From Acutalibacteraceae bacterium (GTDB lineage Bacteria; Bacillota; Clostridia; Oscillospirales; Acutalibacteraceae), in contig JAZPYI010000045.1 in the NCBI GenBank assembly GCA_045544115.1, positions 26,850 to 90,849 of the forward strand: DNA of 64,000 nucleotides, read 5' to 3'. The translations under genes were made by a program, and so were the position numbers. Below the pieces are notes generated by a model. That model had not been told where the DNA came from and did not search any database. It saw only the letters and a program-made list of their open reading frames with translations. How positions within the stretch are numbered: position 1 is the stretch's first letter; every line of letters starts with the position of its first letter. Of the stretch, positions 4,164-28,906 are shown one piece after another.

Positions 4164-4664
4164 TTAATAAGCAGATGAATAGCTTTCAACCAAAACGGTT
4201 ATCTTTTTATCATCTTCAACAGTTAATCGAATATTGAATTTTTCCCTATCTCCATACATTCCGTAATCATCTCTTGGCAAATATGTTCCCTGTGCTTCAA
4301 ATTGATATCCGCCTCTATAATATTCCGAAACGTTAAAAGTACCATATGAAATATTAACAGATGATACACCTGAATTATCACAACACAAATTAACAATTTC
4401 TTGTTTTGCAATATTCTCAGCTGCTTCTCTTGAAATTTTTTCTCCGCTATCATTTGATGATGACACATATGATGAAAGTGCCGCCATATCTTCAGCATCC
4501 GGCAGAAATATACCACCTGCACACATCAGAACTGAAACAATAATTATTATAATTGGTATTTTTTTCTTTTTCTTTCTTATCGCTTGTATTATAAGTATTA
4601 TAAGACCAATTACAAATAAAGGAATACTAATCAAATACAAAATAGCATTAAAATCTAAACCCAT
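4164..4664 (-). CDS. hypothetical membrane-anchored protein (2 N-terminal TM helices, Ser-rich linker, soluble C-domain)
   Basis: 166-aa ORF with gaggt RBS, AT-rich codon usage, two hydrophobic stretches separated by RKKKKK. Confidence 0.7.
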   Translation of the reverse strand: MGLDFNAILYLISIPLFVIGLIILIIQAIRKKKKKIPIIIIIVSVLMCAGGIFLPDAEDMAALSSYVSSSNDSGEKISREAAENIAKQEIVNLCCDNSGVSSVNISYGTFNVSEYYRGGYQFEAQGTYLPRDDYGMYGDREKFNIRLTVEDDKKITVLVESYSSAY

Positions 4665-4763
4665 ATTTATTACCTCTTTTCTATATTCTTTTTATCAAAA
4701 TGAATATTGTGGCTTTTCTTAAACTTCTCCTTTCACAAATCTACACTTTTTATCCCACAAAAT

Positions 4764-4793
4764 AAAAAAGTGCGCCAACCGAAGCCGACGCAC
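4764..4793 (-). terminator. intrinsic terminator of putative sRNA
   Basis: GUGCGUCGGC-UUCG-GUUGGCGCAC-UUUUUU on minus strand. Confidence 0.8.
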
Positions 4794-4970
4794 ATAAAAC
4801 GCAAACTCCGATTGTCGCCAAACAAAACCAGATAAATGGGAATGACTATACATCACACACTATCTGTGAAATTTGCGTTTTTAACAAATTCAAAAATAGT
4901 ATATGATAAGACATAGTATCCCTATAAAAGAAATACCATTCCCGCTACATTTATTTGGTTTTGTTTGGCA
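4764..4970 (-). ncRNA. putative ~205-nt structured small RNA (architecture like skipping-rope / DUF3800-associated motifs; not verified)
   Basis: 22-bp IR 4817-4838/4948-4969 (1 mismatch) extended by gggaatg/cattccc; upstream promoter; downstream cUUCGg terminator with U tract. Confidence 0.6.
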
Positions 4971-4975
4971 TAATC

Positions 4976-5005
4976 AGTATATCACAATTATTCAAGTTCA
5001 TGCAA
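4976..5005 (-). promoter_or_regulatory. sigmaA-type promoter of putative sRNA
   Basis: TTGCAT (5005-5000), 18 bp, TATACT (4981-4976). Confidence 0.55.
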
Positions 5006-5090
5006 TAGTTTGATAAAAAAATCTCACCCGACACCTTTACCGTTTAACTGAATGTGTCATAGTGAGTTAAATGCTTTGATAAAAAGATAT

Positions 5091-5133
5091 AAAAATTGAG
5101 TATTCATAGGCAAATCACTTATGAATACTCAAT
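5091..5133 (-). terminator. terminator of tRNA-Pro
   Basis: Perfect 14-bp IR attgagtattcata (5095-5108) / tatgaatactcaat (5120-5133) with T tract on minus strand. Confidence 0.75.
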
Positions 5134-5134
5134 A

Positions 5135-5210
5135 TGGTCGGAGTGACACGATTCGAACGTGCGACATCCTGCTCCCAAAGCAGGCGCGCTACCAACTGCG
5201 CTACACCCCG
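5135..5210 (-). tRNA. tRNA-Pro (anticodon TGG)
   Basis: CGGGGTG acceptor, GCGC D-stem, CCTGC-TTTGGGA-GCAGG anticodon arm, GCACG-TTCGAAT-CGTGT T arm, encoded CCA; 76 nt. Confidence 0.97.
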
Positions 5211-5248
5211 AAATATTCAGTTGTTATTCGGCACTATGCTTCGATTAG

Positions 5249-5408
5249 CCAAGGCAGGCGCACTACCAACTATCGGTCAGAAACATTGTCGCACCGCACT
5301 GCTCGCTTGGAGCGCTTCGCATTGCTCTGTGTTTCTTCCTGCTCCGCCATTGCCTTCCTCCGCCCCCGGCGGCGGCAATGCCCGAGCCACTACACCCCGA
5401 AATATTCA
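5249..5408 (-). pseudogene. interrupted partial duplicate of tRNA-Pro 5' half with ~118-bp GC-rich insert
   Basis: 5390-5408 identical to 5201-5219; 5249-5271 matches tRNA D-loop/anticodon segment with 2 mismatches; no T arm. Confidence 0.65.
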
Positions 5409-28705: not shown

Positions 28706-28734
28706 TTGACAAGCGCAATTTATTGTGCTATTAT
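28706..28734 (+). promoter_or_regulatory. sigmaA promoter of rplJ-rplL
   Basis: TTGACA, 17 bp, TATTAT. Confidence 0.75.
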
Positions 28735-28749
28735 ATTTGAGCTGTTCTT

Positions 28750-28875
28750 TTTAAGACAGCAGGTGCTTTTCGCATAAAGGTTTTATACCGCCTGCCGAGA
28801 GAGGATGCATACAAGGCTTTATAGCTTAATTATGTATGTTCATGCCCTTTCTGCAGAAGCGGAAAGGGCTTTAAA
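28750..28875 (+). promoter_or_regulatory. L10 leader (autoregulatory RNA)
   Basis: aagacagcagg...cctgccgag motif plus gccctttc/gaaagggc hairpin upstream of rplJ. Confidence 0.75.
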
Positions 28876-28906
28876 TTTTGTAATAAACCTACGGAGGTGA
28901 AAATAC

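Follow-up and report, generated by a model that had tools for sequence, protein, structure and literature searches.

Transcription attenuation driven by a countertranscript has been described for the plasmid pT181, and also for pIP501 and pAMbeta1 (PMC4878617). In Bartonella, the regulatory transcripts Brt1-9 are found upstream of trp genes, and a dual role as cis-acting attenuator and trans-acting small RNA (sRNA) has been proposed for them (PMC5387305). Here we analyzed an RNA element in a 64,000-nt stretch of DNA from an Acutalibacteraceae bacterium (contig JAZPYI010000045.1, positions 26,850 to 90,849), hereafter called the window. The element, an RNA of approximately 205 bases on the minus strand (window positions 4969-4764), had been described in a first-pass annotation as a self-contained hairpin RNA with its own promoter and terminator. 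Judging from the sequence, we consider it reasonably probable that the element is the 5' leader of a gene for a 166-amino-acid (aa) membrane protein, and that it attenuates transcription by means of helices that compete with one another.

Structure of the window RNA

Every feature that the first-pass annotation had placed in this RNA was found again at its position. The features used throughout this paper are as follows.

4976..5005, minus strand: promoter region overall, placed by sequence and by the family-wide position of the extended -10 element
5005-5000, minus strand: -35 element TTGCAT, weak, with 3/6 consensus positions matched
4984-4976, minus strand: extended -10 element TGaTATACT (including TATACT at 4981-4976), with an 18-nt spacer from TTGCAT
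4969, minus strand: predicted transcription start (G4969), first base of the closing stem
4817..4969, minus strand: rod domain (P1a, P1b, P2, P3 and P4), with a minimum free energy (MFE) of -59.7 kcal/mol for the domain
4969-4948 with 4838-4817, minus strand: P1a closing stem, GCCAAACAAAACCAAAUAAAUG, 21/22 paired
4947-4944, minus strand: UAGC bulge
4943-4937 with 4844-4838, minus strand: P1b, GGGAAUG/CAUUCCC
4936-4909, minus strand: P2 region
4908-4896 with 4863-4851, minus strand: P3
4891-4885 with 4875-4869, minus strand: P4, a small, A/U-rich apical hairpin made of strands a and b
4881-4868, minus strand: strand b, that is, the P4 loop and the P4 3' arm, AAAACGCAAAUUUC, complementary to the linker
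4816-4794, minus strand: linker c, GACAAUCGGAGUUUGCGUUUUAU, 23 nt, whose 5' part is 4814-4805 and whose 3' part, 4809-4796, is GGAGUUUGCGUUUU
4793-4770, minus strand: intrinsic terminator GUGCGUCGGC-UUCG-GUUGGCGCAC with a 10-bp stem, from a terminator scan; strands d and e
4785-4776, minus strand: segment d, GCUUCGGUUG, alternative partner of the linker
4769-4764, minus strand: U6 run directly after the terminator stem

The hairpin structure is far beyond chance. On the minus strand, a 212-nt stretch folded with an MFE of -79.5 kcal/mol (z -8.7), and none of 200 shuffled sequences was as stable; the plus-strand fold of the same stretch was weaker, at -56.4 kcal/mol. G-U pairs make one strand fold much better than the other, and the call of the minus strand is upheld. 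The closing stem, the UAGC bulge and the GGGAAUG/CAUUCCC stem were likewise confirmed. The promoter, which had been given as TTGCAT-18-TATACT, is present, but its -35 element matches the consensus at only three of six positions, and the conserved element is the extended -10. The terminator with its cUUCGg loop and U6 is also there, but it has a conserved and equally stable alternative pairing, which is treated in the next section.

The absence of an open reading frame (ORF) with a ribosome-binding site inside the RNA, as noted earlier, holds. No conserved internal ORF was found; the local ORFs of 22 aa and 45 aa lack a Shine-Dalgarno (SD) sequence and are not kept in relatives. The ATG of the 22-aa ORF is missing in a paralogue on contig C66 of the same genome. 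The 45-aa ORF (4856-4719) spans the linker, whose length varies from 21 to 25 nt among copies, and therefore any reading frame across the linker is broken. A P2a pairing (GUAUUUCU/AGGGAUAC) that forms part of the window MFE structure was not above shuffled or slid controls and was discarded, and the GGG/CCC mini-hairpin of P2 received modest support only. On the plus strand of 4764-5005, a consensus scan too coarse to exclude a promoter detected no promoter-like site.

Conserved and mutually exclusive helices

The architecture is shared by more than 140 related copies, and in the window copy every element is present and in order. We define the family by the following series of elements: an extended -10 whose end lies 6-7 nt ahead of a closing stem, GCCAAAC...GUUUGGC; a rod tipped by an A-rich hairpin; the linker GACWAUCGGAGUUUGCGUUUUU; a terminator with a UUCG loop; and, immediately after it, a gene. 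A covariance model, R1, was built from 59 copies (alignment A2); since the window copy is in the seed, its R1 score of 171 bits is by construction. Alignment A2 was ascertained on the linker, and therefore divergent members were gathered with R1. The genome that carries the window, a 2.58-Mb Acutalibacteraceae-like metagenome-assembled genome (MAG), holds four copies, each diverged: the window copy and those on contigs C66, C61 and C5.

Outside the linker, the sequence varies greatly while the structure is kept. P1 segments were distinct in sequence in 137 of 146 copies, with a mean pairwise identity of 46%, compared with 82% in the linker, where conservation within the family is highest. The covariation tests, which were computed without correction for the relatedness of the copies, put pairing at 97.8% for the P1 base (13 bp), where 8/13 pairs show compensatory changes, and at 98.3% for the terminator stem, where 6/10 pairs do. 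The P4 apical hairpin is 92.5% paired, and its loop GRUAAAAA is conserved beyond the needs of pairing. Rod domains had a mean z of -10.7, and all 49 sampled copies lay below -3. When RNAalifold was applied to a plain MAFFT alignment, only the P1 base and the terminator were recovered, because variable stems misalign; the inner stems were therefore assessed sequence by sequence. In 105 of 123 copies, 6-7 nt separate the end of the extended -10 (TGnTAnnnT) from the first G of the stem, and transcription should therefore start at the first base of the stem, giving a base-paired 5' end.

The rod tip and the linker are complementary. In the window, 4881-4868 pairs with 4809-4796 over 14 bp (b:c), and in alignment A2 this pairing was 98.1% formed over 15 columns, compared with 27-60% when the strands were slid; all one-sided changes in A2 were compatible with pairing. 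Across 37 distinct linker cores, the complementarity is held by compensatory changes (for example, GGAGUUUGUAUUUU with AAAAGUACAAAUUCC, and GGAGCUUGUGUUUU with AAAAGCACAAGCUC), and in the C61 copy of the same genome GAAGUUCGCAUUUUU pairs with AAAAGUGCGGACUUC. The duplex energy of b:c was -17.1 kcal/mol with the own partner versus -13.6 +/- 0.4 kcal/mol with permuted partners, and none of 5000 permutations was as good. The four copies of this genome represent three b:c codes that match one another poorly: energies were -17 to -20 kcal/mol for self or same-code pairing and -6.5 to -14.6 kcal/mol across codes.

The linker has a second partner. In the window, 4814-4805 pairs with 4785-4776 over 10 bp (c:d), and throughout the family the linker sequence CWAUCGGAG is matched by CUUCGGUWG, which comprises the closing C of the terminator, its UUCG loop and the proximal 3' arm. 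This antiterminator pairing is 96.4% formed. Its single freely variable position covaries (UA 21, AU 20, UG 11), and rarer variants are compensated as well (GGGG with CUCC; AGC... with ...GCUGC). The c:d duplex energy was -12.8 kcal/mol, compared with -5.3 kcal/mol for shuffled linkers, and again own partners beat permuted ones in all 5000 permutations. When transcripts were cut 6 nt short of the end of the terminator stem, c:d formed in 145 of 146.

In the window, b:c and c:d exclude each other and the terminator. The helices a:b, b:c, c:d and d:e are conserved, covarying and mutually exclusive in a chain, and the covariation among homologs that the first-pass annotation had looked to is found in the P1 base, P4, the terminator, b:c and c:d. 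The energies of antiterminator and terminator differed by 0.6 +/- 2.3 kcal/mol across the family; for the 3' region of the window copy, the antiterminator fold had -18.2 kcal/mol and the terminator-only fold -16.0 kcal/mol. A fine balance of this kind between antiterminator and terminator is the hallmark of attenuators. The terminator competes with a second, isoenergetic fold, and the earlier picture of a self-contained RNA gives way to that of a leader.

Distribution of the family

In a sample of 401 genomes from the order, 140 had a match to R1, as did 107 of 399 from the class, with one to at least six copies per genome (six candidates were scored per genome). By blastn, 40 of 201 genomes from the same taxonomic family as the window contained relatives. 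An exact copy of the linker motif is present in no fewer than 120 species genomes, whose labels include Oscillospiraceae, Acutalibacteraceae and Christensenellaceae among others, and also in four IMG/VR contigs and one gut phage record. Within the window's own genome, the C66 paralogue is 74% identical to the window copy; its outer stem differs in sequence yet pairs through compensatory changes, and its linker and terminator are almost identical to those of the window copy. The C61 and C5 copies, found by the covariance model, are shorter.

Two architectures are present. Type 1 members (140-165 nt), which include the window copy, have P1, a three-way junction with a weakly supported P2, P3 and P4. 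Type 2 members (100-125 nt) are unbranched, near-perfect rods that lack the junction and P2 and keep a, b, c, d and e. We also observed a locus (L019, 1152-1798, plus strand) with three tandem units ahead of one surface-protein gene. The first unit has a linker and terminator and neither a rod nor a b strand, and would be an 'orphan' attenuator addressable only in trans. A search of the window's own genome for a linker and terminator lacking a rod found no such orphan.

The first-pass annotation had noted a likeness to skipping-rope and DUF3800-type motifs and had proposed a covariance-model search of Rfam. No family matched: of the 4227 covariance models of Rfam 15, among them DUF3800-I to X, 6S, riboswitches, T-box and Clostridiales-1, none hit the window RNA with a cutoff of E<=10, nor any of eight divergent members with E<=0.1, and the likeness to those motifs falls away. 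At a permissive E-value, the RNA region gave only chance-level matches to snoRNA and miRNA models, and in the window as a whole only tRNA and the L10 leader scored above gathering thresholds. The latter is a ribosomal protein L10 leader (RF00557, 51.2 bits) at 28732-28884 on the plus strand. For skipping-rope (RF02924), the region searched was 4600-5350 and the gathering score is 36.7 bits. This model works on such material, because a genuine skipping-rope RNA was found with 51.1 bits at L035:640-735 (minus strand), approximately 600 nt from a copy of the present family and on the opposite strand. In the literature, searched both with sequence strings and with descriptions of the element, no paper on this terminator-switch leader RNA family was found. 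In sequence terms, then, the window RNA is one copy of a widespread, uncatalogued leader RNA family of gut Clostridia.

Genes behind the leader

The gene behind the window RNA is as follows.

4164..4664, minus strand: gene for an orphan protein of 166 aa that has a transmembrane segment at its N-terminus, from the ORF and its translation

An SD sequence (GAGG) lies approximately 9 nt before the ATG at 4664. No Pfam family was assigned to the protein, its NCBIfam matches to membrane proteins were all sub-threshold, and no relatives were found in the species genomes searched. Between the terminator and this ATG (4763-4665), a scan detected no promoter-like site.

Throughout the family, a same-strand ORF stands behind the leader in all 157 copies with enough flank; its start codon lies a median of 24 nt past the U-run, and a GGAGG-like SD often directly abuts the U-run. 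In 60.5% of copies, the start of an ORF of 100 aa or more falls within 50 nt, compared with 21% at random positions. The lack of a promoter before ATG 4664 and the co-oriented gene in 157/157 copies bear out a regulatory link to the adjacent membrane protein, which had been suggested before. The window RNA reads as a leader and not as a self-contained sRNA, and the 166-aa membrane-protein gene is the presumed regulated gene.

The survey of neighboring genes showed that, although a same-strand gene is always behind, its kind is very mixed. Among 146 downstream proteins we counted 77 Pfam families, the most frequent being BspA-type leucine-rich repeat (LRR) proteins (13), zinc-ribbon (8) and AMP-binding (4), followed by SPFH, HTH, CHAP and YpsA at three each; many others are orphans like the 166-aa protein of the window. 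An N-terminal hydrophobic segment is present in 65% of downstream proteins versus 28.5% of control ORFs. This heterogeneity disfavors a metabolite riboswitch and fits a portable front end for accessory or surface genes. A conserved aptamer core combined with a coherent gene set, by which a riboswitch class could have been recognized, was not found, and the junction is missing from short members. A part in defence or in a toxin-antitoxin-like module had also been suggested for the element; with no conserved ORF in the RNA and heterogeneous genes behind it, the family does not look like a type I toxin-antitoxin system.

Genomic surroundings

Upstream of the leader, two further features were identified.

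5135..5210, minus strand: tRNA-Pro(UGG) gene, detected by ARAGORN and Rfam, 166 nt upstream of the RNA
5132-5091, minus strand: hairpin terminator of the tRNA-Pro gene, UUGAGUAUUCAUAAG...CUAUGAAUACUCAA followed by U5, between the tRNA and the RNA promoter

The palindrome of the tRNA-Pro terminator recurs on C5 (138-182, 96% identity) and, in diverged form, on C66 (471-515) before the second copy; it is also an isolated match of approximately 45 nt in at least 10 other genomes of the family Acutalibacteraceae. On C5 at ~183-230 (locus L237), the hairpin has beside it a tRNA-Pro-like gene of which just the 3' end (…CCCGCCACUCCGACCA) is present, and no tRNA is called; from its sequence, this looks like the attachment-site remnant of an element integrated into tRNA-Pro. 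Between the tRNA terminator and the promoter of the window RNA, a block of approximately 35 nt (UUAUCAAAGCAUUUAACUCACUAUGACACAUUCAG, 5049-5083, minus strand) is kept in the C66 paralogue. The block alone matches several other genomes at 78-89% identity, and is then followed by a second hairpin and U-run. Upstream of the tRNA-Pro gene, at 5230-5330 (minus strand), there are tRNA-like fragments (…GGUAGUGCGCCUGCCUUGGCU…) in which no tRNA was called and which may represent a decayed tRNA gene.

The C66 and window copies have approximately 160 nt of upstream sequence in common, up to the CCA end of the tRNA. On C66, the common stretch abuts the stop codon of a phage-like ORF, and the second RNA copy begins 160 nt after that stop. 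The contig (locus L009, 1-471, plus strand) opens inside this ORF, the last 156 aa of which match ORFs of 24 gut phage records, including Faecalibacterium and Acutalibacter phages, at 37-51% identity. No Pfam domain and no recombinase domain was found in it; the fragment probably represents the C-terminal end of a phage integrase or recombinase.

The C61 copy lies approximately 300 nt downstream of a tRNA-Thr gene. A same-strand tRNA occurs within 600 nt upstream in ~22 of 151 family copies (~15%), with many tRNA identities (for example, loci L016, L040, L047, L048 and L052); further tRNA-adjacent loci include L060, L063, L068, L070, L074 and others. By our estimate, chance would give well under 1%. 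Since the adjacency is far above tRNA density, this suggests that many of these cassettes lie at the edge of tRNA-linked islands. In the window, what follows the 166-aa ORF (genes for an FAD/Rieske oxidoreductase, YitT and a pyridoxal phosphate enzyme) looks chromosomal; any island here would be very small.

Proposed mechanism and alternative explanations

Based on the chain of exclusive helices, an attenuator in front of the 166-aa gene could operate as follows. Transcription would start at G4969, the first base of the long and very stable rod (P1-P3) capped by P4; the conserved single-stranded linker c would emerge behind the rod, followed by the terminator strands d and e. Before the terminator is complete, c:d would form an antiterminator of about equal stability. 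If the linker is free, the antiterminator would stand and RNA polymerase would read into the gene. If b captures c, no antiterminator would form, the terminator would fold and the ~205-nt RNA would be released. Finished leader RNAs with the same 15-nt code could in this way capture the linkers of nascent leaders, and the outcome would be RNA-only negative feedback or cross-talk. The intermolecular mode, the direction in which regulation runs and any trigger in the cell are what we infer, going beyond the helices themselves.

The intermolecular mode is suggested by the geometry of the rod. Strand b tops a rod of ~40 bp while c starts 7 nt from the base of the rod, and b:c would therefore probably be intermolecular. 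The paired 3' strand between b and c measures 26-54 nt (median 42). We also considered an intramolecular fold-back of P3 onto P1, for which length co-variation and periodicity were tested and neither was found: P1 and P3 lengths gave a rho of -0.33, with no length compensation, and the b-c spacing had no periodicity. A simple intramolecular b:c pseudoknot with an intact rod is sterically implausible. The near-perfect rods of type 2 members and the three poorly matching codes in this genome also fit pairing between molecules. Our model that b:c forms between molecules, so that accumulated leader shuts off nascent leaders of the same code, is put forward tentatively, as a possibility well short of an even chance.

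A broader version of the model, which we regard as possible but a little less likely again, is that the family is a sense-encoded analogue of plasmid countertranscript control, in which each leader carries both a lock (c) and a key (b). The key, placed at the far end of a rigid rod, could not reach its own lock. Finished leaders would instead act between molecules, perhaps as antiparallel dimers, and would force termination at nascent linkers of the same code. Surface and accessory genes gained by horizontal transfer would in this way come under an RNA-only, protein-free limiter of dosage or bursts and be linked in a cross-talk network; a single genome could harbor several orthogonal codes side by side, as the three codes among the four copies here might be.

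Several observations weigh against this interpretation as a whole. One linker core is common to 104 of 146 copies, and much of the support for b:c rests on ~36 phylogenetically related variant linkers. The window gene starts 100 nt past the terminator, beyond the family median, and a weak promoter may have been missed between the two. The heterogeneous downstream genes give no clue to the physiological signal. In addition, the intermolecular contact is argued from geometry only: in the larger type 1 members, including the window copy, b might reach c within one molecule if the RNA bends at internal loops or at the three-way junction, or if a protein brings them together.

The explanation that survives best beside ours, although we think it unlikely, is that the same attenuator is a classical sensor. 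In this case a ligand, an ion or an RNA-binding protein would bind at the rod, the junction or the P4 loop, and the bound factor would control b:c as an intramolecular loop-to-tail pseudoknot, as in riboswitches and protein-dependent antitermination. The b:c / c:d / d:e cascade does resemble platforms of anti-antiterminator, antiterminator and terminator, and two possible binding sites can be pointed to: the type 1 three-way junction with its semi-conserved U-rich/GGG...CCC region, and the P4 loop, in which GRUAAAAA is conserved more than pairing requires. Many of the controlled genes code for surface or secreted proteins, and genes for such proteins are a typical second-messenger regulon in other Clostridia. 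However, the 77 Pfam families among 146 downstream proteins are functionally incoherent, type 2 members retain a, b, c, d and e without the junction and P2, and no conserved unpaired core like that of an aptamer is evident. Moreover, a 7-nt spacer is unable to bridge ~40 bp of intact rod, and the lengths of P1 and P3 do not show the co-variation expected of a fold-back.

A second explanation is that the element is a stand-alone trans-acting sRNA that terminates at 4764 and acts via its loop or linker, the gene behind being independent or incidental. The RNA has its own promoter and a strong terminator, and belongs to a multi-copy conserved family with exposed conserved segments; in the window, the gene does not start until 100 nt after the terminator. 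The Bartonella Brt RNAs, of similar size and layout, accumulate in terminated form and have been proposed to act in trans (PMC5387305). Nevertheless, the SD and start codon lie within ~25 nt of the U-run in most copies, leaving no room for a promoter; a conserved, covarying antiterminator would be purposeless in a pure sRNA; and the conserved segments complement each other and no other obvious target. We therefore rate a pure sRNA as improbable, and the antiterminator favors the attenuator.

A DNA-level element, such as an invertible segment, a MITE-like repeat (miniature inverted-repeat transposable element) or an attachment site, might be suggested by the 22-bp inverted repeat that flanks ~110 bp, by the positions of the window copy just after a tRNA gene and of the C66 paralogue just after a phage-type ORF, and by the enrichment of tRNA adjacency in the family, but it is very improbable, given that the orientation of the interior relative to promoter and terminator is constant in the ~165 copies examined, that folding is far better on one strand owing to G-U pairs, that the promoter stands exactly at the stem base with the terminator or SD directly behind, that the long-range covariation of b:c and c:d has no DNA-level rationale, and that the genome has only four copies, each diverged. 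Neither a cwpV-type inverton nor a MITE was recognized: all aligned copies have one orientation, and the four copies in this genome are diverged.

Implications

If the attenuator model is correct, approximately a quarter to a third of the sampled Clostridia genomes use one uncatalogued leader RNA, in up to at least six copies. It would gate many unrelated accessory genes, from those for BspA-type LRR surface proteins, lipoproteins and small membrane proteins to the cargo of phages or islands, and would rank with the most abundant cis-regulatory RNAs that are still undescribed in the gut microbiota. In addition, it would offer a handle on the control of the variable cell surface in uncultured gut bacteria. 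Since the covarying complementarity between rod tip and linker is hard to satisfy within one molecule, it would point to self-titrating, code-specific attenuation by the leader, a prediction that is testable. The compact and apparently orthogonal codes might further be usable as parts for synthetic RNA circuits.

Comparison with known systems

Like the skipping-rope (RF02924) and DUF3800 motifs, the family is a structured RNA of unknown function in gut Firmicutes and mobile elements; unlike them, the window RNA has no match to their covariance models at any threshold tried.

The Bartonella Brt RNAs and the present family are also alike. Both are multi-copy, highly paired RNAs of ~200 nt with their own promoter and a 3' terminator-like structure before a small gene, and in both the conservation peaks at the 3' end. 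The two have no sequence relationship, however, and come from Alphaproteobacteria and Clostridia, respectively. The Brt RNAs always precede XRE-type regulators, whereas the genes here are of many kinds, and the alternative helices are undefined in the Brt RNAs and defined in the present family. By analogy with what has been proposed for the Brt RNAs (PMC5387305), a dual role as trans-acting sRNA could apply to the present family as well.

The mutually exclusive helix chain ending in an intrinsic terminator is also that of the trp-type 1:2/2:3/3:4 attenuators and of the S-box/SAM-I platforms, in which, as here, the antiterminator is approximately isoenergetic with the terminator and the SD and gene follow directly. 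In contrast to those systems, the present leaders have no leader peptide and no recognizable aptamer, the regulated genes are unrelated, and the partner that would act as anti-antiterminator is ~40 bp of helix away from its target.

Finally, there is a parallel to pT181. Partner strand b is here part of the leader itself, read from the same strand and placed at the rod tip, and is not an opposite-strand antisense transcript; the genes that would be controlled are chromosomal and island accessory genes and not a replication gene; and for this family we only infer action in trans. Although the two differ in these respects, the logic is alike: in both, a 5' leader folds either as an intrinsic terminator or as an antiterminator that sequesters part of the terminator, a complementary RNA in a hairpin loop captures, or here would capture, the antiterminator strand so that the terminator forms, and a short base-pairing code sets the specificity.

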